From an uncultured Candidatus Saccharibacteria bacterium (lineage in GTDB: Bacteria > Patescibacteriota > UBA1384 > DTJR01), in the NCBI GenBank assembly GCA_964487045.1, contig CAZAOT010000001.1, positions 4,875-68,874 of the forward strand: 64,000 nucleotides of DNA, written 5' to 3'. Within the stretch, counting starts at the first letter, position 1. Every line of letters begins with the position of its first letter. Positions 27,869-49,958 of this stretch are shown here, piece by piece. Under the pieces are notes generated by a model. The model was given only the letters and a program-made list of their open reading frames with translations. It ran no database searches and had not been told where the DNA came from. A program made the translations under genes and the position numbers.

Positions 27869-29638
27869 ATGCAAGAGCTGGTGCTGTTTGTTGCTGTAAT
27901 CGGCTATCTGATCGGGTCGATACCGATCGGCTATCTGATTGGCAAGAAGTTCGGCGTGAATCTTCTCGAAGAAGGGTCTAAGGCGATCGGCCGGACCAAC
28001 CTCGAGCGGGTTCTCGCGCCGATCATCGGCGCCAAGCGCGCCAAGCTCTGGGGTTATATCGGCGAGGCAGGCGACCAGCTCAAGGGACTCGTCCCAATTC
28101 TGATTGGTATGCTTCTGCTTCGTCTTGACCCCATCTCGCTCGCTGTCCTCGCTACTTCGCTCATTCTCGGCCACTGCTACTCTGCGTTTCTTTTCTTCAG
28201 GGGTGGCAAGGGAGTCGCGACGACGATGGGCATCGTGCTTGCTCTTTGCTGGTACATCGCTGTGCCATGCTACGTGTTCTGGTTTGCCGCCAAGAAAGCG
28301 CTCGAGACCAAGACGCAGGAGGCAACCGCACTCGCTTCGATTCGCGGAGGTCTTCTGGTTGGTGTTCTGGGAGTCATGGTCACGCACGACCTGGCCATGC
28401 AGATCTTCTTCGCCTTTGCTGCGCTTCACATCGTTTTTGCTCACCGCGAGAACCTGAAGCGCTACAGGCAGGAACAGCTGCAGAAGAAGCTTGAGAAAGC
28501 AAGCTTCCCGGACGATATGCCGACCGGTGTATTCATCACCGATGCGGCTACGAACAATCCTGAGACGGTCAAGCGGCTTCTGATGCAAAAGAAGAAGTTC
28601 GCCTGGCTCGTCAACCTCTTTCCGGCCCAGTTCGTCTGCGACGTGATTCTCCCCATCATCCCGATGAAGTACCTGAAGATGGGCGAGGTCATCCTCGAGA
28701 ATGATCTTGGGGCCAAGGTCAGAGTTGTGACCTGGGGCTACCCGGACATCCCAAGACGAATGATGGAGAACCCGGGCCGTACGATCTCGAGGCTACTTGA
28801 TCTTTGTTCATACGTCGAGTCGCTTGGTGCAGACGACATCTGCCTTGGCGCCAACACAGCCAGTGTCGGCGACAAGGGAGCAACGCTTCAGCAGTTTGCC
28901 CAGTCGATCACGAACGGCAATCGCCTAACCTGCGTCTATGCGGTTAAGGCTGCTCTCAAAGTGCTAGACACAATGCTAATCCCTCGAGGAACCGCTGTAG
29001 CAACTGTGGTTGGCAGTGGCGGCTCAGTAGGAGATGGCGTGTGTCAGCTTCTGCTCAAGGCCGGTATCGGACGCCTGTATTTGGTTGGAAGCACTCTTGG
29101 TAAACAGGCTGGTCAGGCAACTGAGCTCTCGAGGCGTTTTGGGGTTCCGGTTGAAGAACTGGGACTAATGGACGCCCTCTCGCGAAGTCATCTGGCCATC
29201 TTTGCCTCTAGTGGTACGGCCAGAGAGAACGCGCACAAGATCAATCCCGAGGCGCTTCCAGCAGGCTTGATTGTCGTTGACATGGAACGCCCGCGCGAGA
29301 TCTCAAAGATGCTTGCCGAGTATGTGTGGCTTCTGCCGAACGATGGTGGCATGGTTGCTATCGAAGGAACGGGCAAGGCTGGGACTGGCTTGCCTGAAGG
29401 CGTTTACTTCCCTTGTTTCAGCGAACTAGCCTTGCGCCTCTTCCGCGGAATCAGGACGAAGTGGTGCTATCCAGCTACTCTCGAGGAATTGAGGGAGGTT
29501 TGGGAAGCGGCTGAGGAGGAAGGCTTCTCTCTAGCTGGTCTGCGTCTTAATGAGCAGCCAGTTGAAGATCATGAGCTTGCTTTCCGTATCGAGCAAGCAG
29601 AGATGGCAAAAGCCTACAAACCCAGGAGGGTGACATGA
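27869..29638 (+). CDS. fusion protein: PlsY-like glycerol-3-phosphate acyltransferase + acyl-ACP-reductase-like NAD(P) domain
   Basis: 589 aa, GC-rich.
- Residues 1-200 are PlsY-like: YLIGSIPIGYLIGKKFG, GDQLKG, LGHCYSAFLFFRGGKGVATT, AHRENLKRY.
- Residues about 215-589 are collinear with cyanobacterial AAR recalled from memory: TNGN, VVGSGGSVG and YFPCFSE versus TTGN, VVGATGDIG and MFACFAE, which contains the catalytic Cys. Confidence 0.8.
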   Translation: MQELVLFVAVIGYLIGSIPIGYLIGKKFGVNLLEEGSKAIGRTNLERVLAPIIGAKRAKLWGYIGEAGDQLKGLVPILIGMLLLRLDPISLAVLATSLILGHCYSAFLFFRGGKGVATTMGIVLALCWYIAVPCYVFWFAAKKALETKTQEATALASIRGGLLVGVLGVMVTHDLAMQIFFAFAALHIVFAHRENLKRYRQEQLQKKLEKASFPDDMPTGVFITDAATNNPETVKRLLMQKKKFAWLVNLFPAQFVCDVILPIIPMKYLKMGEVILENDLGAKVRVVTWGYPDIPRRMMENPGRTISRLLDLCSYVESLGADDICLGANTASVGDKGATLQQFAQSITNGNRLTCVYAVKAALKVLDTMLIPRGTAVATVVGSGGSVGDGVCQLLLKAGIGRLYLVGSTLGKQAGQATELSRRFGVPVEELGLMDALSRSHLAIFASSGTARENAHKINPEALPAGLIVVDMERPREISKMLAEYVWLLPNDGGMVAIEGTGKAGTGLPEGVYFPCFSELALRLFRGIRTKWCYPATLEELREVWEAAEEEGFSLAGLRLNEQPVEDHELAFRIEQAEMAKAYKPRRVT

Positions 29639-30804
29639 ACAGTAGGGTGGCCGTGCTTGGAGCGGGCCAGTTTGGCTTTGCTCTTGCTTGCCGATTGGCT
29701 CAAGGCGGGATAAAGACGGTTCTGTGGGGCCGTAGTCCGCATATTCTCAGCGGTCCGCGGGCAGTCTCACAGCGGTTCAGTGGTGGATCGCCGCCCCTTG
29801 GGCTTCAAGTTACTGGCGGATCAGGTCTTCCCAGCCTGGATGACTTTGACCTGGTCTTTGTCGCCACTGATTCTTCTGGACTCGCTGAGCTAGTCCCGAT
29901 GATCGCCCAGAGTGATATTGGCGATACGCCGGTTCTTCTTGTCCAGAAGGGTCTTGTGAATGGTGTCTCTCCCGTGGAATTCGCTAGCGCCGCCGGACTT
30001 AACGCCGGTTCGTTTACCGGCGCGGCCTTCGCAAGTGACATCTATCTCGGCTCTGAGGCGATGATGATCGTCGCAGCCGAGGACGTTACCCTCTGCATTA
30101 CAGTGATGGAGCTGCTTAAGCCCCTTAAGTTCTGGATAACTGCATGTAGTGATCCAGACGCGATCTGCGCTGCCAACGTAGCGCGAACGATCACCTCGAT
30201 CGAGATGGGTATTGTCAGCGGCTTCGCGGACTACTTGCAGCGCCAATCAAAGTATGCACTGGTGCCGCATAGGTCGCCTGACTTTACTCCAACCGAGATC
30301 GCGGCGGCCACCGCTAGCATCCAGTACGAGTGGCGGGTTGTCTCAGCGATGCTTAGTCCGGTGATTAACTCCTTGCTCTATCCAGAAGTAGTCTCGGATG
30401 ATGTTTCGATCGTGCGCAACATCAATCGCGAGCGCATTCTCAGGGTCCTTTCCGCTGACAACTACCTCTGCAGCGGGATGATACTCGACCGTAACGACAG
30501 GGGAGGAGATTCTCGGGTGACTCTGGGTCTTCCTCTCGCCACACCGGTCTCGCGCAACTGGCGGTTTGGCTATGCGCTTGGCTGCTGGCGTTATGTCCCG
30601 GATGCCATAAGGGCGGTTGCTGACCTTGGAGTGATCCAGGGGCAGCAGAACGCTCTTGATCTATACAAGCGGTTCGGTGCGAGCGCCCCGCCGTTTCTCA
30701 CCTCCCTTGGCCGAATCTTGACTGAAGTGTCAAAGGTCGAGGAGGAGATCCAGGTCATTCGCGATCGTCGCGATGCCTGGTATGAAAAGTACGCTTCTAG
30801 CTGA
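29635..30804 (+). CDS. divergent GpsA-like NAD(P)H-dependent glycerol-3-phosphate dehydrogenase homolog
   Basis: 389 aa, GC-rich. VAVLGAGQFGFALACRLAQGG...VLWGR aligns with the GpsA N-terminus, and further blocks are collinear (VLLVQKGL; FTGAAFA). ATGA overlap with the upstream fusion gene. Confidence 0.65.
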   Translation: MNSRVAVLGAGQFGFALACRLAQGGIKTVLWGRSPHILSGPRAVSQRFSGGSPPLGLQVTGGSGLPSLDDFDLVFVATDSSGLAELVPMIAQSDIGDTPVLLVQKGLVNGVSPVEFASAAGLNAGSFTGAAFASDIYLGSEAMMIVAAEDVTLCITVMELLKPLKFWITACSDPDAICAANVARTITSIEMGIVSGFADYLQRQSKYALVPHRSPDFTPTEIAAATASIQYEWRVVSAMLSPVINSLLYPEVVSDDVSIVRNINRERILRVLSADNYLCSGMILDRNDRGGDSRVTLGLPLATPVSRNWRFGYALGCWRYVPDAIRAVADLGVIQGQQNALDLYKRFGASAPPFLTSLGRILTEVSKVEEEIQVIRDRRDAWYEKYASS

Positions 30805-30822
30805 GCTATGCTCGGTCTTACA

Positions 30823-30860
30823 CGGGCTCCCGGAAGTTTTCCGGGAGCCCGTTTCTTTTT
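30823..30860 (+). terminator. intrinsic terminator (shared with convergent gene)
   Basis: CGGGCTCCCGG (30823-30833) pairs with CCGGGAGCCCG (30841-30851), followed by TTTCTTTTTT. Confidence 0.8.
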
Positions 30861-31729
30861 TAGTACAAATCTAACTTTGGTTTTTTCTTTTGATAATTTG
30901 CGAATGCTTTTTTCCAACTTTTTGACCAGTAACCGGGCTTCTTGCGGTAATCTTCAAACAGAAATAATCCGCAGTACGGACAAAGTTTCTCCAATTGTTC
31001 GCGCATCGAATCTTTATCCTCTGGCAGAGTTTTTCTTCCTAAATTGAAGCCCATAATTCGATCAATTGATCCAGCATTCGGGCAAGCATAATAGCCGTGC
31101 TTGGTAAGTGATTTGCCGCACTGGTTTAGAACTAGGCAGCCATTTCTAAAATCTGCATCCTTATATCGTTTGCGATCTCGAGGTGCAGCGTTGATAGAGA
31201 TAAAGTAGCCGTGTATTTGAGAGGTCTTTTTATTGTTTTGGATAATTATGCCTTCTGGCAACTTTTTAATCTCATCTTGAACTTTTTTACCGACCCCATT
31301 GGTGATGATTTTAATTTCTGATTTTGGTGAAAAATCGCGTTTATATTTTAAAAGCAAGCGAAACATCCCCATAGTTTCTGGTTCGAGCGTTGATTCTCCG
31401 CCATAAACCGTTATCCTTCCCCATTTCTTACCCGCTTTTTTCGACTCGGAAATAAATTTTTTCACTTGCTCAATCGTCATTTTCTCGCGCGATGGAGCTT
31501 GGCGACACATCTGAGAGCAGTCGTAACATTTGAGGTTGCAATGATAGGTGGTGATTAAATCTACTTTATTAGGGTCGCTTCTGTAAGCATAACCAAGTAT
31601 CTTGGTCACTCTAGGATTGATTCGAAAACGGTGCCAATTATCTTTTAAGAAAAAATAGCTCCAGCGAGCAGCTTTTTTCAGTGGTTTTATTCTATATACT
31701 ATCTTCCGAACAAAAAAGTTTTCTGTCAC
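30860..31729 (-). CDS. radical SAM protein
   Basis: 289 aa with CNLKCYDC (CxxxCxxC). AT-rich native composition. Confidence 0.75.
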   Translation of the reverse strand: MTENFFVRKIVYRIKPLKKAARWSYFFLKDNWHRFRINPRVTKILGYAYRSDPNKVDLITTYHCNLKCYDCSQMCRQAPSREKMTIEQVKKFISESKKAGKKWGRITVYGGESTLEPETMGMFRLLLKYKRDFSPKSEIKIITNGVGKKVQDEIKKLPEGIIIQNNKKTSQIHGYFISINAAPRDRKRYKDADFRNGCLVLNQCGKSLTKHGYYACPNAGSIDRIMGFNLGRKTLPEDKDSMREQLEKLCPYCGLFLFEDYRKKPGYWSKSWKKAFANYQKKKPKLDLY

Positions 31730-31734
31730 GTGGA

Positions 31735-32259
31735 CTATTTTATTTCAATTGATTCGATCTTATCACCGATTTTGATTTTCTTAACGATGTCCATGCCTGA
31801 ACTGACCTTGCCAAAATATGTATACTGCTTGTTTAGGAATGAGCAGTCGACTGTGCAGATGAAGAATTGGTCGGCATTTGAAACTTTAATATCGCCGGCC
31901 CTGGCAATACCTACCGCTCCCTCTGAAAAATTGCTGTCAGATAACTCAGTTGCTTGATCGCCACCGCCGGTGCCGTCTCCCTTTGGGTCACCTCCTTGTA
32001 CGACCCAATCCTCGACGCGGTGAAAAGTTCTCCCAGCATACTCACCGGCAGTAACTTTCTTGATGAAATTATCGACTGTGTTTGGTGCCGACTTAGCGTC
32101 GAGGTCGATTGTAAAACTTCCAGCATTTGTTTTGATAGTAGCCTTCTTATTAATCACATTATTCACGATATTTTCCTTCGATGTCTGCTTGCTAGATGCG
32201 CAAGCGGTTAATGTTAGAGCGAGCCCAAAAACAAAAAAAGCGATAAATATTTTTCTCAT
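31735..32259 (-). CDS. cyclophilin-type peptidyl-prolyl isomerase, lipoprotein
   Basis: FHRVEDWVVQGGDP cyclophilin core. Lipobox LTLTAC after the MRKIFIAFFVFGLA signal peptide (start taken at the second Met, 32259). Confidence 0.85.
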   Translation of the reverse strand: MRKIFIAFFVFGLALTLTACASSKQTSKENIVNNVINKKATIKTNAGSFTIDLDAKSAPNTVDNFIKKVTAGEYAGRTFHRVEDWVVQGGDPKGDGTGGGDQATELSDSNFSEGAVGIARAGDIKVSNADQFFICTVDCSFLNKQYTYFGKVSSGMDIVKKIKIGDKIESIEIK

Positions 32260-32301
32260 AAAGACAATGTAAAACAACTTAGCCGTTTTGGCAAATCAAT
32301 G

Positions 32302-33474
32302 TTATCTGTTAGATAGGTCACCAATAATTTTTTTGTATGTAGCGACGCTCTTTCTTGGTTTGCGGTCAATTGTATGCAGACCAAACATCATCGAGTAACC
32401 ACTGGCCCACTCAAAGTTATCAAGAAGCGACCAATAGAAATAGCCACGAAGATCATATCCGTCCTTTATCGACTCGCCAAGCTCCTGAAAAACGTTCTCT
32501 AGATAAGCTTGGCGCTTATCGTCATCGATCGTGTCATCGCAAGGAATGCCGTTTTCAGTAATATAAATTGGTTTATTATATTTGCTTGCCTCCTTGATAA
32601 CTTCACAAATTCCAGACGGCTTTTGGATCCAGTGATATTTTTCTTTTTCGGTAATTCGATCGCGGATGAATTTTGGGCTAAAACAGACGAAATGACTCAA
32701 ATAATGATTGATACCTACAAAATCAAAATGTCCCTTTATCTTGTTTAAGAAAAATTCGTTAACTAACCATTTGGCAAGACCAGTTAGTAGTCTATCTTGC
32801 CAAACGGGACGAGAAGGGAAAAATGCGCTCATATTATAAGCAATTCCAATTTGAATATCCTTACTTTCTTTTTTCATTGCTAAATAGGACTGCTTTTGGG
32901 CTGAAATAAGATTAAAAAAAGTTCTGACGCCGTCTAGGTATGCGCCTCGTCTTCCAGGATACCAGTTCCCAGCGATGAATCCGGTCATTACATAGACATT
33001 TGGTTCGTTTAGGACAGACCATAGCTTCACTTCATTGCCGAACTCCTTCGCCATCCTAGAGGCAAACCTAGCAAAATACCAAGGGGCTTTGCGATTGGTC
33101 AGGCCTCCCTTGTCATCTAGCCAGACGGGTAGGGTGAAGTGAAACAGCGTCACCATAGGCTCAATTTTGTTTCTATTGAGCTCGGCAATTATTTCCCGGT
33201 AATGTTCAACAGCCTCTTGATTGAATTTTCCTTCTTCGGGCTCGATTCGTGACCATTCTATCGAAAAACGATAAGCATTTTGAGAAGAATCCTTCAGAAG
33301 TTTAATATCATCACGCCATTTATTGTAACTATCCGCCGCTATTTCAGCAGTATCATGATTATGAATCTTTCCGGGAAGTTTCTCCCACTCAGACCAGTCA
33401 TTGTGCTGGTGCCCTTCGATTTGGTGAGCGCTTGTGGCTGAGCCGAATAAAAATCCTTTTGGAAATTTTATCAT
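32302..33474 (-). CDS. glycoside hydrolase family 1 beta-glucosidase
   Basis: 390 aa with NEPN (acid/base Glu) and ITENG (nucleophile Glu) motifs. Confidence 0.9.
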   Translation of the reverse strand: MIKFPKGFLFGSATSAHQIEGHQHNDWSEWEKLPGKIHNHDTAEIAADSYNKWRDDIKLLKDSSQNAYRFSIEWSRIEPEEGKFNQEAVEHYREIIAELNRNKIEPMVTLFHFTLPVWLDDKGGLTNRKAPWYFARFASRMAKEFGNEVKLWSVLNEPNVYVMTGFIAGNWYPGRRGAYLDGVRTFFNLISAQKQSYLAMKKESKDIQIGIAYNMSAFFPSRPVWQDRLLTGLAKWLVNEFFLNKIKGHFDFVGINHYLSHFVCFSPKFIRDRITEKEKYHWIQKPSGICEVIKEASKYNKPIYITENGIPCDDTIDDDKRQAYLENVFQELGESIKDGYDLRGYFYWSLLDNFEWASGYSMMFGLHTIDRKPRKSVATYKKIIGDLSNR

Positions 33475-33893
33475 CTGACTTTTTTTGAATATTTAGTAAT
33501 CAGATCTTTTACTCCAGCGATGACCGCGTCGCGTACTTCAGGATCACTTTGCGCCACCCAAATTGCCAGGTTGTAGAGCTTAGCCGGCTGAATTGTCATC
33601 CATCTTTTATTTAAGAACAAAAAGATAAGCAATGTTGTGACGGCAATGCGCTTGTTGCCATTTTGAAAGGGATGGTTTTTGATGAGTAGATAAAATAATA
33701 CCGCCGCCTTTTCTTCGAATTCAGGATAGAGATCCTTGCGATTATAGGTCTGAAAGGGTACAGCAAGACAGCTTTCCAGCACTTTTGGAAATCTTGTCTC
33801 AAACGCAGGGATTGGTTCATCCCAAGCCATAGTAGCGATGGCGAGCTGGTGAGCAATATCTTTGATGTGATCAACTCCAATACGCTTGATCAT
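33471..33893 (-). CDS. doc: Doc (death-on-curing) Fic-family toxin
   Basis: 140 aa with Fic/Doc motif HPFQNGNKR. ATGA overlap with the upstream HTH gene. Confidence 0.88.
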   Translation of the reverse strand: MIKRIGVDHIKDIAHQLAIATMAWDEPIPAFETRFPKVLESCLAVPFQTYNRKDLYPEFEEKAAVLFYLLIKNHPFQNGNKRIAVTTLLIFLFLNKRWMTIQPAKLYNLAIWVAQSDPEVRDAVIAGVKDLITKYSKKVR

Positions 33894-34147
33894 TCTGCTC
33901 CCAAGTCCTTAATGACCGACCCATAATCTCGAAGTGTTTTCTCTACACCCTTAGTAATCAGAGACTTATCGTTGCCAGAAATTTCCCCCGTAATTTTATT
34001 GAGCTCTCCGATTGGTATCAGGTAATTTTTACCAAAACGCTCAGACTTAATAAGCCCAGCCTTTACTCTTCTAAAGATCTGAGATCTGCTCATACCGATT
34101 GCAAGTGCGAAATCGGGGATAGTGATAAATTCCTTTTCATGTTGCAT
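33890..34147 (-). CDS. helix-turn-helix antitoxin partner of Doc
   Basis: 85 aa. N-terminal excisionase/MerR-like HTH (FITIPDFALAIGMSRSQIFRRVKAGLI). Translationally coupled to doc. Confidence 0.75.
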   Translation of the reverse strand: MQHEKEFITIPDFALAIGMSRSQIFRRVKAGLIKSERFGKNYLIPIGELNKITGEISGNDKSLITKGVEKTLRDYGSVIKDLGAE

Positions 34148-34155
34148 ATAAGTAT

Positions 34156-34195
34156 ATTATGAAACATATGTTGCATCTTGTCAATAGTATGCAAC
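34156..34195 (-). promoter_or_regulatory. TA-operon promoter with overlapping inverted-repeat operator
   Basis: On the minus strand: TTGACA (34184-34179), 17 nt, then CATAAT (34161-34156). GTTGCAT (34170-34176) and ATGCAAC (34189-34195) flank the -35 box. A third GTTGCAT copy covers the start codon (34141-34147). Confidence 0.6.
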
Positions 34196-34196
34196 C

Positions 34197-34221
34197 AAAA
34201 AGAACCATCTTGCAATGGTTC
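34197..34221 (-). terminator. putative intrinsic terminator (minus strand)
   Basis: GAACCAT (34202-34208) pairs with ATGGTTC (34215-34221), with a T-run on the minus strand (plus-strand A-run 34197-34201). Confidence 0.4.
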
Positions 34222-34533
34222 CTTCGGGTGTCTAGCTATAAACTGGTTCGAAGATAGCTTAAACTCTTAACATAAGCTTACCATGAGTTGTCAATGGGGG
34301 TTAGGTAATATAAAAAGCCGGTTTGTTGCCGGTATTTCATTTTTGGCGGAGCGATTTTTGAGAGCTTTTGCGAGGTGGAATCGCAAAATTCCTAAGCAAA
34401 AATCTAATGTATGAGGGATTCGGTCAGCGGTCAAAATTTGCTATTTTTTCCTTATGGAGGGATCCTCGTAAGGCTGGGCAAAGCCCATCTTCCTTGCGCA
34501 CCCTCGTCGAGGGTTCGATCCTTTCCCTCGCAG

Positions 34534-34558
34534 AAATAAAACACCGACACGAGGTCGG
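34534..34558 (-). terminator. terminator downstream of tRNA-Ser(GCU)
   Basis: CCGAC (34544-34548) pairs with GTCGG (34554-34558), with T-rich tracts on both sides, immediately 3' of the tRNA. Confidence 0.5.
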
Positions 34559-34569
34559 CATTTTATTTC

Positions 34570-34659
34570 TGGCGGAGAGGGAGGGATTCGAACCCTCGGG
34601 CCCCTTGCGAGACCAACACATTAGCAGTGTGTCCCATTCGACCACTCTGGCACCTCTCC
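34570..34659 (-). tRNA. tRNA-Ser (anticodon GCU)
   Basis: 90 nt. Acceptor GGAGAGG/CCTCTCC, anticodon arm ACACA-CTGCTAA-TGTGT, long variable arm, T arm GAGGG-TTCGAAT-CCCTC, encoded CCA. Confidence 0.92.
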
Positions 34660-35700: not shown

Positions 35701-36828
35701 ATGAAGCGAGATACTAAGATATTTATTACTCTGCTAATTTTTTTCCTAGCAGTTTTGGCTTTCTTCTGTAAGAAGGAGTATGAAAATCTTGATTATTTTT
35801 TGCCGCTTGCTAACTCGATCTTGCATGGAAAATTCAGTGTTAATTGCAACCTAGCGCTAAACGAACTCGTAAACATCAAAAATAGATGCTTTGTAGTTTA
35901 TCCGCCGGCGCCGGCGATCGCACTACTACCGTTTGCGCTTTTATTTGGCAGCAAATTAAGCCAAGTATACCCTGGAATCATCTATGCCTCGCTCGCCGGC
36001 GCCTTGTTCTATCTGGTTCTAAGACGTCTCACAAAAGAACCAGAAGCAATAGCGCTTAGTTTATTTCTGATGTTTGGCACTAATTTCTTCATGATTTCGC
36101 TGATTGGAAGGTCATGGTATTTTGCCCATGTCACCGGAATATTTTTCATGGTTATTTCAGTACTCTTTGCCCTCAAAAAAAAGCCATACTTAGCTGGAAT
36201 TTTCTTAGGCTTAGCTGGCATGAGCCGTTTGCCGATGCTCTTTGCTTTTCCAGCAGTCTTATATCTTCTCAAACCTACCAAAAAAGATTATATAAAGTTT
36301 TTTATTCCAGTTAGCGCAGTTGTTCTTATTTTCTTAGCCTATAATTACTATCGTTTCGGCTCGATATTTCAAACTGGCTACTCCCTGATTCCGGGAGTGC
36401 TTGATGAAGCTTGGTACAAGCAGGGGATTATGTCGCTTAGCTATATACCTAGAAATCTCAAAGCGATGTTCCTGCAAATGCCAGAATATATATCCGTTTT
36501 CCCTTGGTTTGTTCCCAAGACTTATGCCATGGCCTTGTGGCTAACTTCGCCGGCCCTTCTGCTTCTTGTTTTTGGCCTTAAGGACAAGCGCTCCTTAGTA
36601 ATGATGCTGAGCTTCGCTTTAATAATTTTCACCGATTTAATGCACGGCGCGGTCGGATTTAGTCAGTTTGGTTACAGATTTGCGCTTGATGGAATGATTT
36701 TTCTTATTATCGCGATGATTCCAGCCCTTGAGTCACAGCCGATACTATCACTAAGCTTAATCTTTGTAAGTGTAGTGATAAACTTTTACGCTGTTTTGGA
36801 ATATGCGCTTGGTTACTTTCATCCTTAA
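35701..36828 (+). CDS. polytopic membrane protein, probable GT-C-fold glycosyltransferase (ArnT/PMT-like)
   Basis: 375 aa, about 10 TM segments. Functional call is tentative. Confidence 0.55.
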   Translation: MKRDTKIFITLLIFFLAVLAFFCKKEYENLDYFLPLANSILHGKFSVNCNLALNELVNIKNRCFVVYPPAPAIALLPFALLFGSKLSQVYPGIIYASLAGALFYLVLRRLTKEPEAIALSLFLMFGTNFFMISLIGRSWYFAHVTGIFFMVISVLFALKKKPYLAGIFLGLAGMSRLPMLFAFPAVLYLLKPTKKDYIKFFIPVSAVVLIFLAYNYYRFGSIFQTGYSLIPGVLDEAWYKQGIMSLSYIPRNLKAMFLQMPEYISVFPWFVPKTYAMALWLTSPALLLLVFGLKDKRSLVMMLSFALIIFTDLMHGAVGFSQFGYRFALDGMIFLIIAMIPALESQPILSLSLIFVSVVINFYAVLEYALGYFHP

Positions 36829-37220
36829 ATATCGATTCTGCTATAATTAATCTGTACTAATTTTTCTGCAAAACATTTACTTCTGCGTGAAGTATCTCAA
36901 AAGAGGGGGCACCCCGATTAAATTTACATATTTAACGGGTCGAGGTGACGTACTTTTTTCGCCTAAAATCTGATAGGTAATCGTTCAGTCTCGCCTGGCA
37001 CCCTATTGCATAGCGCGATAGAACTATCACAAGTCTAACAACCTCTTTTTGCTCGCTTTGTTAAAGTCGAAATCATTTCTTTGGTTTTTACAAAGTAGAG
37101 CTAAGCGAAACCAGTCGCTATTATTAGTTTTTTGTTCGAAGGAGGGGAAAATTCGGCAATTGTTTTGTTAGTGATTTTTTTCATACTAATGAGTGGGCGG
37201 TAAGATTTTAAAAAATATTT

Positions 37221-37264
37221 AAACAAAAGAGGCGGGAGCGAAGGGGTTGCCCTTCGCTCCCGCC
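37221..37264 (-). terminator. intrinsic terminator of the GC-rich small-protein operon
   Basis: GGCGGGAGCGAAGGG pairs with CCCTTCGCTCCCGCC (37231-37264), followed on the minus strand by TCTTTTGTTT. Confidence 0.8.
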
Positions 37265-37270
37265 GGGATG

Positions 37271-37423
37271 CTACGCGCTTTTCGCGCGCTTGATGTGGTA
37301 GGCGAGTGAGATGATGGCGCACACCCCACAGAAGAATGGGATTGCGCGTATGTGCTCACCTCCATAGGCCTCAATAAGGCCGCCAGTGACCAGCGATAGA
37401 ATCGAATAGCCCAGAAGACTCAT
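37271..37423 (-). CDS. 50-aa two-TM peptide (gene D of GC-rich operon)
   Basis: MSLLGYSILSLVTGGLIEAYGGEHIRAIPFFCGVCAIISLAYHIKRAKSA. RBS TAGGAG overlaps the stop of gene C. Not in the ORF track because of its size. Confidence 0.55.
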   Translation of the reverse strand: MSLLGYSILSLVTGGLIEAYGGEHIRAIPFFCGVCAIISLAYHIKRAKSA

Positions 37424-37433
37424 CGTGATACTC

Positions 37434-37709
37434 CTATTCTAATCCCAGAGTTGCTCCGCCGGCAAAGCGGCGTTCTGTTTCAGCGAGGAGAGCCTTTCCC
37501 TCGATCGTCACCATGTTGTCCGACATGATTCCTTGCTTGTCTGGACAAATGATGAGTTCTGCTTCGCCTGTCAGTCTGACTTCAGCGGAACTCGTTTCCG
37601 CTATCTCGACAAAAAGAGGTGGCTCGTGTGAGCCAGACTTATTCTTCAGACAGACCCAGATACGCGAGCCGACAGGTTGGCGCCTGAGGTCGAAGAAGTT
37701 TAGCTTCAC
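37434..37709 (-). CDS. 91-aa soluble protein (gene C of GC-rich operon)
   Basis: GTG at 37709, preceded by GAGGAGG. GTGA start/stop overlap with gene B. VKLNFFDLRRQPVGSRIWVCLKNK... No family recognised. Confidence 0.6.
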   Translation of the reverse strand: MKLNFFDLRRQPVGSRIWVCLKNKSGSHEPPLFVEIAETSSAEVRLTGEAELIICPDKQGIMSDNMVTIEGKALLAETERRFAGGATLGLE

Positions 37710-37927: not shown

Positions 37928-37942
37928 TGGTGCTTTCCCTTT

Positions 37943-40133: not shown

Positions 40134-40175
40134 TCGAAAGCAGAAATATTGAGTTTCTCAATTTCCTGCTTTCGA
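40134..40175 (+). promoter_or_regulatory. long imperfect hairpin upstream of the cargo gene
   Basis: TCGAAAGCAGAAATATTGAG, loop TTT, then CTCAATTTCCTGCTTTCGA: a roughly 19-bp stem with small bulges. An alternative CCTGCTT/AAGCAGG stem lies at 40165-40181. Sits about 37 nt before the cargo RBS. Confidence 0.4.
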
Positions 40176-40225
40176 AGCAGGAAAATCTCTGTACAGGCCA
40201 CAAGGCCGTGCAAGGAGTGAGAACA

Positions 40226-40846
40226 TTGTCTAAGGTCAACAGTATCCAGCTCACGTGTCTCAAGCCGAATGACTGTTCCACCCGACTTGCTCTTCCCGAA
40301 GTCACCTACGACTTTCGGGTGTGGGCTATCATCAACGACCTTGAGAAGGCCGTTGAGAAGGCGGGCGGTGCAACGCTCGCAGTCTTCGCGGGTGTTCCGT
40401 GGGAGTACGGGAGCCGCTCGGTCAACTTTCTCAACTATGTGGCCGAGATGGTGGTGAGAACAAACCGCGGCAAAGGGGAATTCATCGGAAGAAGCTATCT
40501 TGCGAGTGGCGGGATGTCACGGCTCGCAAGCTTGATGAAGGACGTTCGGCCAGACGGACAGATCAGAGCTGTGGTCGACCAAATCACGCGAACAATCTGG
40601 TCCGACCAGCCGATCCCGCGCGGTTTGCCCGACAATCTCTGGTACGAGCAGACGGACTACGAGTCGTTCTGCATCAAGTCGGGCAAAGGTGACATCATCA
40701 GGTGGGTTCCCGAGAATCAAGTTCAGGAGGAGCGGACGATGGGATTTCTCCGCTTGGAGTTTGAGGAGCCCTCTGTCAAGCACTTCTGTCAGCTAATTCA
40801 ACAGCTACATCGCTTTCCGGGTGTGGCCGAGTTCGCCAACGGCTAG
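40226..40846 (+). CDS. orphan GC-rich cargo protein of the recombinase element
   Basis: About 206 aa from the TTG at 40226 (AAGGAG 8 nt upstream); GTG at 40208 or 40217 are alternative starts. G/C-ending codon bias. No family recognised. Followed by a terminator. Confidence 0.65.
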   Translation: MSKVNSIQLTCLKPNDCSTRLALPEVTYDFRVWAIINDLEKAVEKAGGATLAVFAGVPWEYGSRSVNFLNYVAEMVVRTNRGKGEFIGRSYLASGGMSRLASLMKDVRPDGQIRAVVDQITRTIWSDQPIPRGLPDNLWYEQTDYESFCIKSGKGDIIRWVPENQVQEERTMGFLRLEFEEPSVKHFCQLIQQLHRFPGVAEFANG

Positions 40847-40869
40847 CTGTAGACCGGAGTACAAGCAAC

Positions 40870-40898
40870 AGGCAGACCAGCAGTGGCCTGCCTTTTTT
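40870..40898 (+). terminator. intrinsic terminator after cargo gene
   Basis: AGGCAGACC pairs with GGCCTGCCT (one mismatch), followed by TTTTTCTT. Confidence 0.6.
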
Positions 40899-40969
40899 CT
40901 TGCCGCCAAAGGAGAAATCTGCTAAGATTTCTCTAGTGAGCGAAGCTCACTAAAAAACTTGAAATTGTC

Positions 40970-41064
40970 AAAGTTCAGAATTTCAGTCGGGAATTTTCGG
41001 GGGTGTTTTCTCGGCCGCTTCGCGGCCAAAATACGTTCGAACAATTTTCAGGATAGAGTACCAG
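40970..41064 (-). repeat. IR-B, right copy (95 bp, inverted)
   Basis: Perfect reverse complement of 39910-40004. Ends with GTACCAG at 41058-41064. Confidence 0.92.
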
Positions 41065-41186
41065 AATAAAATTTGCCCCTCGCGGGCTAATTTTATTATT
41101 TGGGAACCATAGGATTCGAAGGCCGCAGCGAGCGTAGGCGAGCGAGGCGGGGTCGATGAATTTGCCAGCAGGCAAATATCAGTGAC

Positions 41187-41208
41187 CGAATCCTATCGGG
41201 TGTACCAG
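41187..41208 (+). repeat. direct repeat of tRNA-Arg 3' end (att-type site)
   Basis: 22/22 identical to 38301-38322. Followed by hairpin ATATGAC...GTCATAT plus T8 (41210-41248). Confidence 0.85.
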
Positions 41209-42293: not shown

Positions 42294-42437
42294 ATTATCA
42301 CCCACCTTTCTTACTAAATTGTAGCAAAAATTCTGATAAGTAAATACCTTTTAAAATTTTGATTATTATGCTTGCTTTAGCGTGGTTTATCTGGTAAAAA
42401 ATGCATATCACGACCATGTTCGAAGGATGGTGAGCAG

Positions 42438-42635
42438 ATGGCCAGGCATATGAGTTGGCGTAAAGGTGGTCGGGCGAGACCCAAGAGGTGTCACCGAGAG
42501 CAACCGGGTCACCCCGATCCGCAAGGTGCCCAGTGGCGTCACGAACGGTACATCGAGCAGATGCGCGCAAGCCTGAAGCCGGGACAGCTTGAGGCCCTTC
42601 AGGCGCTCAGCCACGGTTACCACAGGTACCGATGA
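42438..42635 (+). CDS. possible 65-aa highly basic protein of GC-rich island 5 (could instead be non-coding)
   Basis: ATG preceded by AAGGATGGTGA. Followed by hairpin AGAGTCTC/GAGACTCT (42656-42692) plus a T-rich run. The composition-biased sequence makes coding status uncertain. Confidence 0.35.
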   Translation: MARHMSWRKGGRARPKRCHREQPGHPDPQGAQWRHERYIEQMRASLKPGQLEALQALSHGYHRYR

Positions 42636-42717
42636 ACCACGAGCGCAGTCGTATCCAGAGTCTCAAGCTGGTCTTGTACCGGCGCGAGACTCTTCTTCTT
42701 TAATGATTGATTTTCCG

Positions 42718-43677: not shown

Positions 43678-43706
43678 TTGATTGTATGGGTATATTCTAG
43701 TATTAT
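43678..43706 (+). promoter_or_regulatory. sigma70-type promoter of GC-rich island 6
   Basis: TTGATT (43678-43683), exactly 17 nt, then TATTAT (43701-43706). Confidence 0.6.
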
Positions 43707-43750
43707 GACGTGACGAGAATTCGCGTTCATTACAGAGGAGAGAGTGCCAT

Positions 43751-44179
43751 ATGTGTAAGAAACTGATATTTGCTAGTACGCTGGCACCGAAACTCTACTG
43801 CTTGTGCACACCGAGTGAGGAGTTGCTGGAGGTCTTGCTTGAGCGTGCCAAGGACGATGAGTGTCGCGCCGAGCCACTTATGGTGGCCGAACAGGAGATC
43901 GAGTTCGGGCCAGCCAACTATCTTTATGACGAGGCCCGCATGCGCGTCTGTGAGGCTAGTGCAGGCATGGCTACGGTCATGATCCAGGTCGGTAGTCATG
44001 CTGATGGAATTCGATCAGTGCTTGTGCCTGTTGGCGAGAAGGAGGGTGATGACGAAGCCCTGCCTGAAGGGGCTTTGATGCCAGGTATCGGTTGCCCGAT
44101 GGAATGTCTGCTGGGCCTGGGGCTGTTTTGTCTCGTGATCAAAGGCGGCATTTGCGCCGTCCATTATCTGCTCGGCTAA
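43751..44179 (+). CDS. orphan Cys-rich protein with C-terminal TM helix (GC-rich island 6)
   Basis: 142 aa. RBS GAGGAGAGAG. C-terminus GIGCPMECLLGLGLFCLVIKGGICAVHYLLG. Confidence 0.6.
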   Translation: MCKKLIFASTLAPKLYCLCTPSEELLEVLLERAKDDECRAEPLMVAEQEIEFGPANYLYDEARMRVCEASAGMATVMIQVGSHADGIRSVLVPVGEKEGDDEALPEGALMPGIGCPMECLLGLGLFCLVIKGGICAVHYLLG

Positions 44180-44200
44180 TGGCCGGGAGGGGAGTACAGC

Positions 44201-44512
44201 ATGTCTTTGTTTGGCAAAAAGGGAGAGCCGAAGCCGCCTAAGGTGAGGAAGGAGCGCAAGCCGCGCGCTCCGATCACCAAGGAGCGAGTCTTTGAAGGGT
44301 TGTTGGCTTTTGGCCGCAACCTGTTGCTGGTAGTGACCGTCGTAGGCATCTTGGCGCTCTCGGCGCTCGTCTACGTCCTGTTCCAGAAGATCGGCGGCGG
44401 CAGTAGCGACCCAGCAACGAAGAACCTGATTCTCGTCGCGACTGCGATGACGGCCGGAGGCGGCTTTTTCACGCTCTGGCTCGGCCGCACCTGGGGCATC
44501 ATCCCGTACTAG
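44201..44512 (+). CDS. orphan two-TM protein with Lys/Arg-rich N-terminus (GC-rich island 6)
   Basis: 103 aa. RBS GGGAGGGGAG lies 6 nt upstream of the ATG. Followed by a strong terminator. Confidence 0.65.
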   Translation: MSLFGKKGEPKPPKVRKERKPRAPITKERVFEGLLAFGRNLLLVVTVVGILALSALVYVLFQKIGGGSSDPATKNLILVATAMTAGGGFFTLWLGRTWGIIPY

Positions 44513-44535
44513 GGCTGATGCCTGCGAGCATCTTT

Positions 44536-44576
44536 GGCGGTTTGTCCGGTCACCCGGACAAACCGCCTTCTTTTTT
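44536..44576 (+). terminator. intrinsic terminator
   Basis: GGCGGTTTGTCCGG (44536-44549), loop TCAC, CCGGACAAACCGCC (44554-44567), then TTCTTTTTT. Confidence 0.85.
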
Positions 44577-44582
44577 AAAAAC

Positions 44583-44603
44583 AAAAAAATCGCCCTTTGG
44601 CGA
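44583..44603 (-). terminator. intrinsic terminator of the valS-TPR operon
   Basis: TCGCC (44590-44594) pairs with GGCGA (44599-44603), with a T7 run on the minus strand. Confidence 0.5.
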
Positions 44604-44644
44604 AATAGAGTTCTCTCGTTCTTAGCTCTTAGTTTTTAGTTTTT

Positions 44645-47495: not shown

Positions 47496-47524
47496 TTGAC
47501 TAATTATTACTCTTGAGCTATATT
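47496..47524 (+). promoter_or_regulatory. sigma70-type promoter of GC-rich island 7
   Basis: TTGACT (47496-47501), exactly 17 nt, then TATATT (47519-47524). Confidence 0.65.
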
Positions 47525-47575
47525 TTCAGGATTGAGTGCCCCTTATGGGGCCCAAAGGACATTGAGGTGATGGCG

Positions 47576-48730
47576 ATGCGAATCGGCATGTTCACTTTGA
47601 CTTATGGAAGGTCTAACGGCGTGGCCGTCTCCGTCGCCAATCTGAGCCGCGCGCTTCGCGAAGCCGGCCATGAAGTTCATATCTTCGGGCCAAGCGGTGT
47701 GGCGGATACAGACGAATTCTACCATCCGTTCGTGACGGTGCGATTTCCCCAGGCTCCGGACTATCCGGTGCCAATACCGAACTTCCTGCGTGCTCTCAAG
47801 ATAGCGCGTCGGTACAATCTTAAGCTTATGCACACTCACCATCCTTGGCTGCTCGGCAGTGATGCGGTGAGGGTGGCGCGCGAGCTGGAGGTGCCGGTAG
47901 TTTCCACGGTGCACACTCAGTATGATTTCTACTCCGAGCTTTTCCCGTGGATTCCGAGCAAATGGAAGCGCAAAGCGCTGCATTGGGTGCTCAGGCGTCA
48001 CCTCTGCAGTGTCGATCTGGTGACGACGCCGGGCATTGGTTCCAAGGCGCGCCTGGATGACATGCAGCTGACTACGCCGGTTCGTCTCGTCACCAACGGC
48101 ACCGACCTGTCGCTCTTCGGGTATGGCGGCGCCAACGAAATCAGACGCCAGCTCAGAATTCCGGAAGGCGCCCAGGTCTTCGGCTATGTTGGCCGGTTCG
48201 ATCCCGAAAAAGATCTCGGCACCCTGATCGATGCGGCGGCTAAAGTGTTCAAATGGCATCCGCGAGCCGTGCTGCTCATGGTCGGCGACGGTAAAGAGCG
48301 CGAATCGCTCGAGTGGAAATCCAAACCGCTCGGCAACCGAGTCATCTTCACCGGCCGAATTGCCCACGAGCAAATCGCGCCCTACTACAGCGCGATGGAT
48401 ATCTTCGTCACGCCGAGTAGGTTCGAGGTTCAGCCGATGACCATCGCCGAAGCGTTTGCCAGCGGTTTGCCGGTCGTTGCTTTGGATGTGCCTGGCAGCG
48501 AGATGGTCCATCACGGCTACAACGGCCTGCTCGTGGATCCAGCCCAACCGGTAAGCGCCCTGGCTCGAGGAGTCAGTCAGATCTTTAGCGACCCATTCCG
48601 ACATCTGACGCTACAGGGCCACGCCAGAGAGTCGGCGCGGCAGTACGAAACCGCCGAAGCTTTGTCACAGATGCTCAGTGCCTACCAAGACGCCGGCTAC
48701 TTCTGCCGCACTCGTCAGTCGTCCGTCTAA
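47576..48730 (+). CDS. GT4 glycosyltransferase, GC-rich copy (diacylglycerol glycosyltransferase-like branch)
   Basis: About 384 aa from MRIGMFTLTY (GAGGTG RBS; ATG at 47570 is an alternative start). Motifs NGVAVS, GHEVHIFGP, TVHTQYDFY, VDLVTTPG, EVQPMTIAEA. Resembles alMGS/CpoA-type GT4 (from memory). Confidence 0.8.
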   Translation: MRIGMFTLTYGRSNGVAVSVANLSRALREAGHEVHIFGPSGVADTDEFYHPFVTVRFPQAPDYPVPIPNFLRALKIARRYNLKLMHTHHPWLLGSDAVRVARELEVPVVSTVHTQYDFYSELFPWIPSKWKRKALHWVLRRHLCSVDLVTTPGIGSKARLDDMQLTTPVRLVTNGTDLSLFGYGGANEIRRQLRIPEGAQVFGYVGRFDPEKDLGTLIDAAAKVFKWHPRAVLLMVGDGKERESLEWKSKPLGNRVIFTGRIAHEQIAPYYSAMDIFVTPSRFEVQPMTIAEAFASGLPVVALDVPGSEMVHHGYNGLLVDPAQPVSALARGVSQIFSDPFRHLTLQGHARESARQYETAEALSQMLSAYQDAGYFCRTRQSSV

Positions 48731-48746
48731 CAAGTAATGGTTCCGT

Positions 48747-48778
48747 GGCCGGAGGTTCGCCTCCGGCCTGTTTTTTTT
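48747..48778 (+). terminator. intrinsic terminator
   Basis: GGCCGGAGG (48747-48755), loop TTCG, CCTCCGGCC (48760-48768), then TGTTTTTTTT. Confidence 0.85.
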
Positions 48779-48803
48779 GAAAAAAGGTTCTACAATTAGG
48801 GTG

Positions 48804-49958
48804 ATGAAGATCGCAATTTTTACTAATACCTATTGGCCAACTGTAAATGGCGTAGCTGTTTCGGCGACTAATTTGCGCGAAGGACTCATTCAGCTTGGAC
48901 ATGAGGTTTTTATCTTTGCGCCAGACGACGAAGATTTGAAGAAGTTGAAAGAACAGGCTAACGTTTATCGCTATCCATCTTTCAATATTAAAGAAATTGC
49001 TGATTATGAATTGGCGCTTCCGTCCTTGAAGATTAATGAAGTTTTAGATAAAAATTCCTTTGATATCGTGCACAGCGAACATCCGCTCTGGATAGGAAAG
49101 TGGGGGATGAATTATGCCAAAAAAACCAATACCCCGATTATTACAACCGTTCATACTCAGTACGATCTCTACGCCAAATTAATACCGCTACCCCAGGGAA
49201 TTTTGGTACCAATTTTACATAAAAATCTTAATCGATATTTAAATAATGTTGATTTAGTGACGACTCCAGGGGAGGGATCGAAGCAAAGGCTGATTGAGCA
49301 AGGAGTGAAGACGCCGATCAGGGTGGTTTCAAACGCGACCGATCTCAGTAGGTACTGGAAGGCCAAAGGAGATAAGGTACGCCGTGAGCTGACTAACAAT
49401 AATGAGAAATTGATTGGGTTTGTCGGGCGGCTATCGAAGGAAAAAGACGTTTCTGTCTTACTTGATGCAATGAATCTTATTTTAAATAAAATGCCTGATA
49501 GTAAGCTCATTTTGATTGGTGATGGTCCGGATAGAAAAGAGCTCGAGGAAAAAGCCAAAACTATTTCAAACAAAATTGTTTTTCTTGGCAAAATTGATCA
49601 TAAACAAATCCCTGATTATTATGCCTCCTTTGATATTTTTCTCTCGGCTAGCCAGTCGGAGGTTCAGCCAATGACTTTTGCCGAAGCGATGGCAACCGGT
49701 ACGCCGATTGTTGTTTTTAATGTTGCTGGTTGTAATGATATGGTGAAAAATCGCGAGAATGGACTATTGATTGACCCTAAAAAGGGCGCCCAGGGATTGG
49801 CAGATGCGGTGACAAAGATTTTAGTAAACGAAAAAGAGTTAAAAAAATTAAGCTCTCAGGCTAGAAAATGGGCCAGCCGCTATGATCTGATGACGGCGAC
49901 CAAAGATATGGTTGAAGCCTATGAGCAGGCAATCAAGATTCACTCAAACAAGAACTAA
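48804..49958 (+). CDS. GT4 glycosyltransferase, AT-rich copy (same subfamily as 47576-48730)
   Basis: About 384 aa from MKIAIFTNTY. Shares NGVAVS, GHEVFIFAP, TVHTQYDLY, VDLVTTPG and EVQPMTFAEA with the upstream GC-rich gene. Confidence 0.85.
   Translation: MKIAIFTNTYWPTVNGVAVSATNLREGLIQLGHEVFIFAPDDEDLKKLKEQANVYRYPSFNIKEIADYELALPSLKINEVLDKNSFDIVHSEHPLWIGKWGMNYAKKTNTPIITTVHTQYDLYAKLIPLPQGILVPILHKNLNRYLNNVDLVTTPGEGSKQRLIEQGVKTPIRVVSNATDLSRYWKAKGDKVRRELTNNNEKLIGFVGRLSKEKDVSVLLDAMNLILNKMPDSKLILIGDGPDRKELEEKAKTISNKIVFLGKIDHKQIPDYYASFDIFLSASQSEVQPMTFAEAMATGTPIVVFNVAGCNDMVKNRENGLLIDPKKGAQGLADAVTKILVNEKELKKLSSQARKWASRYDLMTATKDMVEAYEQAIKIHSNKN

Follow-up and report, generated by a model that had tools for sequence, protein, structure and literature searches.

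The 64-kb stretch of DNA analyzed here (the window) contains eight short GC-rich islands in an otherwise AT-rich sequence, and one of them encodes the acyltransferase PlsY fused to an acyl-ACP (acyl carrier protein) reductase (AAR)-like domain, followed by a divergent GpsA-family protein (Table 1). The best reading of our results is that the islands are GC-rich units that keep fixed places on the chromosomes of a small clade of AT-rich bacteria, probably of the candidate phyla radiation (CPR) type, as judged from the three slots covered. We lean, if only modestly, toward viewing them as old, lineage-restricted accessory transcription units, one of which would be a PlsY/AAR-like/GpsA module for the initiation of glycerolipid synthesis. 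Islands that stand 12 to 18 GC points above background and yet occupy the same slots in diverged relatives challenge the practice of equating atypical composition with recent transfer.

GC content was scanned in 300-bp scanning windows. The non-island background has a mean of 40.1% GC (standard deviation 3.9, maximum 49.0), whereas eight segments between 24.2 and 52.0 kb have 51-58% GC, which confirms the GC-rich islands in an AT-rich background that an earlier note on this DNA had described. That note placed them between positions 27869 and 49958; the second position is the end of a native-composition gene for a glycosyltransferase of family 4 (GT4), the GC-rich GT4 gene stopping at 48730, and the islands at 24190-25690 and 51200-52010 lie outside this range. 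Island borders coincide with the borders of open reading frames (ORFs) or transcription units. The GC excess is present at all three codon positions (GC1 0.54-0.64, GC2 0.39-0.48, and GC3 0.60-0.81 in island genes, versus a GC3 of 0.36-0.45 in native-composition genes of the window), and island proteins have more Gly, Ala, Arg, and Pro and less Lys, Ile, and Asn than native proteins. Codon usage of island genes is uncorrelated with that of native genes (r -0.03 to -0.28) and moderately alike among islands and across lineages (r 0.32-0.78); the likeness to an unrelated GC-rich genome is slightly lower (r 0.21-0.67).

In each well-defined island, one to four GC-rich genes lie between a promoter-like site of their own and a strong hairpin terminator, so the insulated transcription units proposed earlier are borne out by the promoter-like sites and terminators that frame the islands. 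The four strongest intrinsic terminators between 23.9 and 52.3 kb (30822-30852, 37231-37264, 44536-44567, and 48747-48768), with stems of 9-15 bp that are mostly G-C, all end islands. No homology was found between islands, nor any shared repeat, motif, or att-like core at island borders except at 38301-41208. The islands are therefore unlike integron gene cassettes in having no shared recombination site at their borders, and the sole recombinase is a large serine recombinase, not an integron integrase. Structured RNA was considered for the ORF-poor islands and rejected: nothing exceeded the Rfam gathering score (weak sub-threshold matches occurred at 36800-38300 only), and small ORFs with ribosome-binding sites were found there.

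The mosaic is also reproduced in other data. Four independent assemblies (L001-L004) from four sequencing runs are 99.99-100% identical to window positions 24289-34597, a segment that covers island 27800-30860 with both junctions; L001 begins within island 24190-25690 and covers its right junction. Because the four assemblies have the same junctions, the mosaic at 24289-34597 is not an assembly chimera, and this explanation was ruled out for island 27800-30860. The four assemblies were identical and thus gave no signal from strain single-nucleotide polymorphisms about the direction of mutation.

Relatives that carry the same neighborhoods allowed three of the eight island slots to be compared. 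Flanking genes are 62-88% identical in these relatives, whereas island genes in the same slots are 26-62% identical or undetectably similar, and island proteins are more diverged than flank proteins in all comparisons made. In L005, a landfill metagenome contig, flanking genes (GT2, epimerase, u191, VIT1-like, and peptidyl-prolyl isomerase) are 65-75% identical, apart from one HIT-family gene at 35%, and the island genes (55-61% GC versus 35-48% in the flanks) comprise the 453-aa ORFan (26%), the PlsY-AAR fusion (46%), and the GpsA-like gene (29%). In L006, the flanking peptidyl-prolyl isomerase and glycoside hydrolase family 1 genes are 87% and 68% identical, the fusion is 62% and the GpsA-like gene 26% identical, and island GC is 0.58-0.59. 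The flanks in L010 consist of the native GT4 (86%), tryptophanyl-tRNA synthetase (71%), and the next gene (62%); the upstream GT4 there (59% GC) is 42% identical to the GC-rich GT4 of the window, and the slot of the 97-aa ORF is GC-rich with contents diverged beyond recognition. In L012, AT-rich flanks enclose another GC-rich GT4 that belongs to the same subfamily.

These comparisons also give the islands a relative age. In the flanking genes, identity at four-fold degenerate sites is 28-54%, versus a random expectation of 23-30%; these sites are thus near saturation, and the islands are older than the splits between these lineages. Native GC3 is ~0.38-0.40 in the window and L010, 0.47-0.50 in L005, and 0.53 in L006, and island GC3 is 0.55-0.74 throughout. 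Since island GC3 remains steady while background GC3 differs, the gap between them narrows as the background rises.

Database searches revealed very few family members. Only five relatives of the fusion and its AAR-like domain occur among 5.8 billion protein clusters; the fusion has none in 185,579 species genomes, and in a scan of JGI metagenome contigs it turned up on two contigs only, that of L005 among them. For the GpsA-like protein, 1.84 billion representatives contain two close relatives (a family of 3). No viral contig carries the fusion, and searches of protein, genome, metagenome, and virus collections returned no island homologue above 37% identity outside the lineage. With five and three known family members, no donor can be named. 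The earlier view of the islands as foreign cassettes is thus not supported in the sense of a recent transfer from a common donor, given the GC-rich genes in the same slots of diverged relatives and the failure of these searches to produce a donor.

The fusion protein has a PlsY membrane domain (approximately residues 1-205) and a cytoplasmic AAR-like domain of ~375 aa (approximately residues 215-589). The former passes the Pfam model PF02660 (105.3 bits versus a cut-off of 24.1, 4.7e-30), with residues 11-198 aligned to model positions 1-163 of 164, and it matches Aquifex PlsY (PDB 5xj5) at an E value of 7.6e-19. In an alignment with the Aquifex enzyme, Ser35, Thr41, Arg45, His92, the GGKG loop with Lys104, His177, and Asn180 are kept, and Ser142 is replaced by Thr. 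These are the positions that Li et al. (PMC5700162) showed to bind glycerol-3-phosphate and acyl-phosphate. The PlsY assignment in the earlier note therefore stands on domain match, structural match, and substrate-binding residues alike.

The partner domain, which the earlier note took for an acyl-activating type, is instead AAR-like. It matches AAR structure 6jzq at an E value of 7e-9 and also matches the N-terminal domain of PigE, and its identity to cyanobacterial AAR is ~20%. The five known family members were used to build a structure model, whose mean pLDDT is 70.5 overall; the C-terminal domain mostly scores 75-95, and the PlsY region is poorly modeled. The predicted C-terminal fold aligns by Foldseek with 6jzu_A at an E value of 1.6e-14 and a TM score of 0.77 normalized to the target. 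Cys516 aligns with the nucleophile Cys294 of Synechococcus AAR in an F-x-C-F-x-E context common to both, and Cys516 and the NAD(P) motif GSGGSVG (382-388) are invariant in all five family sequences (G382/G384/G385/S386/V387/G388). From sequence and model, the domain, in which the catalytic Cys and the NAD(P) motif are both preserved, is predicted to adopt the AAR-type thioester reductase fold. In the relative L014, PlsY and the AAR-like part are encoded by two distinct ORFs that overlap, and the GpsA-like gene comes next. Our search of the accessible literature turned up no report of a PlsY-AAR fusion. Other PlsY fusions in the databases (P0007, P0008, P0015, and P0017) were rejected as relatives, their C-terminal parts being unrelated to AAR.

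The start of the GpsA-like gene overlaps the stop of the fusion gene (ATGA), which couples the two translationally. Its product passes PF01210 (31.7 bits versus a cut-off of 23.1, 1.8e-7); taken alone, it resembles GpsA weakly and misses the NCBIfam GpsA models (best 55.4 versus 202 bits). The C-terminal substrate domain (PF07479) is undetected in the window protein alone; in the L014 orthologue it reaches 26.0 versus 25 bits, so that both Pfam domains of GpsA are above their cut-offs there. The structures 3k96, 1z82, 1evy, and 1txg are matched over their full length by a profile of six family members (E values from 8.9e-22 to 1e-11), the next-best family being far behind and restricted to the N-terminal domain. 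Invariant residues include S306/R307/N308 (the S-R-N phosphate motif), K105/G106 (with the Q/T-K-G lysine), and D275 (D-x-x-L-C). The GpsA-like assignment made earlier is therefore upheld at the family level, for a divergent member. The fusion, or its PlsY and AAR-like parts, lies next to the GpsA-like gene in the window, L005, L006, and L014. Together with a promoter-like site and a strong terminator, these features support the reading of positions 27769-30852 as a coherent, putative glycerolipid-initiation operon. The genes that come after the GpsA-like gene differ: an AT-rich radical-SAM gene (30860-31729, minus strand) in the window, a GC-rich 324-aa ORF (u324; 12966-13940) in L005, and u130 and the GC-rich 346-aa u346 (3215-4640) in L006. 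The C-terminus of u324 is 46% identical to u130, and no family could be assigned to u324, u130, or u346.

CPR bacteria, or Patescibacteria, are thought to be unable to build their own membrane lipids. Genomes of this group have been reported to contain PlsY and PlsC but to lack PlsX (10.1101/465690), so it is unexplained where their acyl-phosphate comes from. One candidate for this missing step is a PlsY that is joined, by fusion or by translational coupling, to a domain handling thioesters, with a gene of the GpsA family next in line. We infer the enzyme activities, the acyl-phosphate chemistry, and the GT4 substrate as follows. The GpsA-family enzyme would supply glycerol-3-phosphate from dihydroxyacetone phosphate, and the PlsY domain would move an acyl group from acyl-phosphate to it, yielding lysophosphatidic acid. 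The AAR-like domain would load an acyl chain, taken from an acyl-thioester or from a fatty aldehyde and NAD(P)+, onto Cys516 as a thioester, and would then release acyl-phosphate by phosphorolysis of this thioester, feeding PlsY directly and replacing the missing PlsX or FakAB step. Finally, the fast-diverging GC-rich GT4 and the native GT4 might make a glycolipid, by analogy with paired diacylglycerol (DAG) glycosyltransferases. Aspartate-semialdehyde dehydrogenase and GAPDH phosphorolyse thioester intermediates, and by analogy with them we regard acyl-phosphate formation at Cys516 as a tentative proposal that is somewhat more apt to be wrong than right. No PlsX was found in the operon or elsewhere in the 64-kb window. 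An AMP-binding enzyme at 2819-4666 (minus strand) was rejected as a fatty-acid activator: it has native composition and is an acetate-CoA ligase (TIGR02188, 780 versus 725 bits).

The lipid unit would work like the PlsX/PlsY/GpsA route, with which it shares a PlsY that has the glycerol-3-phosphate clamp and the phosphate hole and is coupled to a GpsA-family gene. It differs in the missing PlsX, in the 375-aa AAR-like domain on the PlsY C-terminus, in an Arg in place of the catalytic Lys of the GpsA-like protein, and in having approximately five known family members. It also resembles the PlsY-DegV fusions, in which a FakB-like, fatty-acid-binding component is attached to the PlsY C-terminus (Li et al. 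2017, PMC5700162). In both cases, a protein that handles the acyl donor sits at the cytoplasmic C-terminus of PlsY, which suggests channeling of the acyl donor, although the partner here would have a Rossmann-type thioester reductase fold with a catalytic Cys rather than that of fatty-acid-binding DegV. With cyanobacterial AAR (6jzq/6jzu; TIGR04058) it shares the fold, the NADPH-type glycine motif, and the nucleophilic Cys; it is unlike that enzyme in its ~20% identity, in its fusion to PlsY, and in its proposed product, which would be acyl-phosphate and not aldehyde.

The main rival to acyl-phosphate supply is a conventional reductase, in which the AAR-like domain would convert an acyl-thioester or acyl-phosphate into fatty aldehyde or alcohol for ether-type or modified lipids. 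All characterized members of the fold (AAR, the N-terminal domain of PigE, and the carmabin TAD) reduce thioesters, the NAD(P)-binding motif is invariant, and reductase-acyltransferase fusions occur in myxobacterial ether-lipid synthesis (ElbD). Nevertheless, the phosphate hole and acyl-phosphate contacts of PlsY are intact, and this domain should thus still need acyl-phosphate; moreover, no alkyl-transfer enzyme lies nearby. We therefore consider a true reductase unlikely. No aldehyde-deformylating oxygenase partner was recognized among the window ORFs scanned.

The second island with a recognizable enzyme holds the GC-rich GT4 gene, which lies next to the native-composition GT4 gene on the same strand. 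Its product passes the models for both GT4 halves (PF13439 at 97 bits and PF00534 at 115 bits), and the two window proteins are paralogous at 38% identity. They differ in GC3 (0.70 for the GC-rich and 0.42 for the native copy) and in their identity to the L010 counterparts (42% versus 86%). The best database matches of the GC-rich GT4 are orthologues of the native GT4 next door, which are 86, 86, and 73% identical to the native copy and 38% identical to the GC-rich one. A neighbor-joining tree unites the native copies and all GC-rich copies in one clade (266/300 bootstraps), which excludes a GT4 of a uniformly GC-rich genome. Compositional attraction should separate GC-rich from native GT4s, and the joint clade is thus a conservative result. 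By sequence, the GC-rich GT4 appears to be a paralogue of the native-composition GT4 directly downstream, and this grouping speaks against the common donor clade for which the earlier note suggested a test by enzyme phylogenies. With the same subfamily and locus but opposite composition and rate, the pair forms a natural control.

A lipid role for this pair has roughly even odds. The GT4 family assignment proposed earlier holds; the DAG-glycosyltransferase-like character is weakly matched. For both proteins, the best-scoring characterized family is the alpha-monoglucosyl-DAG (MGlcDAG) synthase model NF049988, whose cut-off of 400 bits both miss by far (105.9 for the GC-rich and 174.9 for the native GT4). 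Their solved relatives are best represented by 6kih (Tll1590), which we take to be a sucrose-phosphate synthase, and also include BshA- and MshA-type enzymes. These low scores and relatives favor the alternative that both GT4s act on surface polysaccharide or soluble acceptors, such that the lipid theme would be confined to one island, an outcome to which we give only slightly less than an equal chance. Against it, the MGlcDAG-synthase model leads all other matches of the native GT4 by 13 orders of magnitude, the automatic JGI annotation names the GT4 orthologues 1,2-diacylglycerol 3-alpha-glucosyltransferase, and in Acholeplasma and Streptococcus, mono- and di-glycosyl-DAG are the products of neighboring GT4 paralogues. 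Compared with such pairs (Acholeplasma alMGS/alDGS; NF049988), the window has two adjacent paralogous genes as well, and the best characterized match of the native copy is the MGlcDAG-synthase model. It differs in that the scores are well below the cut-off, the substrate is suggested by analogy, and the copies are 18 GC points apart, each with its own terminator or promoter.

As for the origin of the islands, we infer an ancient acquisition from a GC-rich source with GC still being lost slowly, and we rank this scenario above recurrent cassette replacement, which in turn ranks above an active local process. Polarized four-fold changes in the fusion gene (47 GC-to-AT versus 27 AT-to-GC) fit slow, ongoing decay toward AT. 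Several points weigh against the old accessory units and lipid module that we favor. Parsimony at saturated sites is biased toward the very direction of change just cited. A rough amelioration estimate puts four-fold divergence at ~0.6-1 substitution per site per lineage and the GC3 excess expected now at ~1/3 of its starting value; a present excess of 0.25-0.30 after such decay would imply an improbably GC-rich donor or a retaining force, and a GC3 of 0.61-0.74 would be difficult to keep by passive means. The lipid unit misses the equivalog thresholds for PlsY (TIGR00023, 111.7 versus 137.2 bits), AAR (TIGR04058, 21.5 versus 449.7 bits), and GpsA. To our knowledge, AAR is known only as a reductase. 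In the GpsA-like protein, the position of the catalytic Lys (which we take to be Lys204 of the K-N motif in human GPD1 numbering) is occupied by Arg184, invariant in all six family members, so its activity or substrate may differ from that of GpsA. The window also has rhamnose, nonulosonic-acid, GT2, and flippase genes, as would suit GT4s acting on surface acceptors. The CPR-like host considered in the earlier note is plausible, the basis being one mobile-element protein cluster (that of the recombinase described below) and the source samples, two of which are landfill metagenomes.

The idea of recent foreign cassettes, possibly from one donor clade and kept because they complete a lipid pathway that a CPR-like host lacks, draws on the atypical composition at all codon positions, on codon usage uncorrelated with that of native genes, on the self-contained promoter and terminator units, and on island 40100-41200, which lies on an insert with att-like repeats and a serine recombinase. 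It is already largely refuted by synteny, given that GC-rich genes fill the same slots in relatives whose flanks are only 62-88% identical, and island proteins diverge more than the flanks, not less. The lack of outside homologues above 37% identity, the grouping of the GC-rich GT4 with the adjacent native copy, and the lack of a mobility signature at seven of eight islands also speak against it, and we regard it as highly improbable. Like recently acquired genomic islands, the islands have atypical base composition and codon usage, and one of them lies beside a tRNA gene with a recombinase and direct repeats. They are unlike such elements in that seven of eight are without mobility marks, each is a single transcription unit of 0.4-3 kb, the slots are conserved in L005, L006, and L010, and a donor is untraceable. 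The likeness to genomic islands is thus one of composition only, and their behavior is closer to that of stable hypervariable envelope loci. With O-antigen or capsule-type loci they share a stable slot, conserved flanks, divergent contents, persistently atypical composition, and envelope function, but they are GC-rich within an AT-rich genome, the opposite deviation, and form many small separate units instead of one large cluster.

This resemblance bears on another explanation, in which the islands are hypervariable envelope slots whose contents are repeatedly replaced, via the conserved flanks, from a GC-rich cassette pool of the clade; the deep divergence between lineages would then reflect old alleles rather than fast evolution. 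Conserved flanks with very divergent contents fit it, as does the varying content of the slots (the GpsA-like gene is the last one of the window island but is followed by u324 in L005 and by u130 and u346 in L006), a neighborhood devoted to the cell envelope, and the location of one GC-rich cargo gene on a mobile element with a recombinase that shares at least 90% identity with proteins of two CPR phyla. However, PlsY-AAR identities follow the same order as flank identities (L006 closer than L005), as vertical descent predicts, no free GC-rich element with these genes occurs among viral contigs, and the comparison covers two or three lineages only, which leaves this account rather unlikely in our judgment. 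We place slightly less weight still on GC richness made or maintained in place by GC-biased gene conversion or a gene-specific mutational regime, with the GC-rich GT4 as a tandem duplicate. The GC excess is found in every lineage examined even though synonymous sites in the flanks are near saturation, adjacent GT4s of the same subfamily differ in composition and rate, and codon usage is alike across islands and lineages. Yet the polarized changes lean toward GC loss, and this speaks against an equilibrium maintained by some force toward GC. A GT4 duplicate would need an amino-acid shift from 20% to 30% Gly, Ala, Arg, and Pro, the neighbor-joining tree leaves duplication and old transfer from a related lineage unseparated, and we know of no bacterial mechanism that raises GC by 15-20 points gene by gene. 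A bolder combination, which we find similarly doubtful, is that an active local process (GC-biased conversion, a gene-targeted mutational regime, or ongoing cassette exchange with a GC-rich pool that has not been sampled) keeps the slots GC-rich and fast-evolving, the GT4 pair showing this process at work on a duplicate of a native gene, and that the fusion is an undescribed source of acyl-phosphate independent of PlsX and Fak. If true, it would explain how PlsX-less CPR bacteria feed PlsY.

Table 1. GC-rich islands and associated features of the window
Feature	Position	Strand	Remarks
GC-rich island	24190-25690		52% GC
GC-rich ORFan, 488 aa (ORF488)	24209-25675	+	GC-rich 453-aa ORF in same L005 slot, 26% identity
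Sigma-70-like promoter site of lipid operon	27769-27797	+	TTGATT-17-TATACT, upstream of operon; consensus match only
GC-rich island	27800-30860		56% GC
plsY::AAR-like fusion, 589 aa	27869-29638	+	PF02660, 5xj5, 6jzq, 6jzu matches
Divergent GpsA-family gene, 389 aa	29635-30804	+	PF01210; family profile versus GpsA structures
Intrinsic terminator of lipid operon	30822-30852	+	14-bp stem, 10 G-C pairs, T run
GC-rich island	37200-38110		52% GC
GC-rich minus-strand unit	37231-38153	-	ORFs of 44, 73, 91, 50 aa; three membrane proteins
Insert at 3' end of tRNA-Arg(GCG), ~2.9 kb	38301-41208		Perfect 22-nt direct repeat 38301-38322/41187-41208
GC-rich island	40100-41200		52% GC
GC-rich island	42300-42700		51% GC
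GC-rich unit	43678-44567	+	Promoter-like site 43678-43706, ORF142, ORF103, terminator 44536-44567 (14-bp stem)
GC-rich island	43700-44640		56% GC
Sigma-70-like promoter site of GC-rich GT4 unit	47496-47524	+	TTGACT-17-TATATT
GC-rich island	47500-48780		58% GC
GC-rich GT4, 384 aa	47576-48730	+	From ATG 47576 (other starts 47513, 47570); 59% GC
Intrinsic terminator between GT4 genes	48747-48768	+	9-bp G+C stem, T run
Native-composition GT4	48804-49958	+	41% GC
GC-rich island	51200-52010		55% GC
Convergent GC-rich gene pair	51245-51915		ORF97 (51245-51538, +); 88-aa protein (51649-51915, -)

Beyond these two islands, the lipid theme fades. Every recognizable GC-rich ORF had been assigned to lipid assembly in the earlier note; the theme holds for one island, may extend to a second through the GT4, and is absent from the other six, whose contents show no demonstrable tie to lipids. 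Six of the 10 remaining island ORFs encode small membrane proteins (44, 73, 50, 142, 103, and 88 aa), in agreement with the prediction that most would be small integral membrane proteins, and the other four are soluble ORFans (488, 91, 209-212, and 97 aa). ORF488 and ORF212 have no match in Pfam, NCBIfam, or PHROGs, and a single-sequence structure model of ORF488 (pLDDT 41.8) was unusable. A phage or defense origin of the ORFans was considered and set aside, as there was no PHROG match, although a PADLOC defense search was not made.

The minus-strand unit sits immediately upstream of tRNA-Arg and has a promoter-like site at 38153-38125, a Shine-Dalgarno-like site at each of its four ORFs, and, at 37264-37231, the strongest terminator of the region (15-bp G+C stem). 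In the unit that starts at 43678, ORF142 (43751-44179) has one membrane segment and ORF103 (44201-44512) has two. The 88-aa protein of the convergent pair has three membrane segments and is 44% identical to a gene in the same L010 slot; nucleotide conservation at 51650-52030 is due to this conserved membrane protein. L010 has a hairpin with a 17-bp stem (4024-4060) between its two convergent island genes. The segment at 42300-42700 peaks at 59% GC, lies between the gene for a 107-aa membrane protein and a 244-aa ORF, and has weak overlapping ORFs only.

Mobility marks occur at one of the eight islands, 40100-41200, which lies on the insert next to tRNA-Arg; no such repeats or cores were found at the other seven. 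The insert carries an AT-rich gene for the large serine recombinase (38307-39902, minus strand) and GC-rich ORF212 (40208-40846, plus strand). Inverted repeats of 95-100 nt bracket the recombinase gene (38316-38415/39817-39916, 98%) and ORF212 (39910-40004/40970-41064, 100%), and a GTACCAG core is present at all four junctions, with nine copies in the window versus 2.4 expected. The insert could represent two paired segments that can invert, or an artefact that arose when such a pair was assembled. The 90%-identity cluster of the recombinase holds proteins of Candidatus Berkelbacteria and Peregrinibacteria.

Two other regions of the window have native composition. Positions 1-22200 hold a surface-glycan cluster with RmlA/RmlC/RmlB-type genes, a PseB-like dehydratase, a DegT aminotransferase, NeuB, a cytidylyltransferase, a HisF-like gene, a flippase, an O-acyltransferase, and several GT2 genes, which looks like a nonulosonic-acid and rhamnose glycan pathway. 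At the other end (52712-63063) are two giant Ser/Thr-rich ORFs of 1967 and 1487 aa that, by eye, look like repetitive surface proteins.

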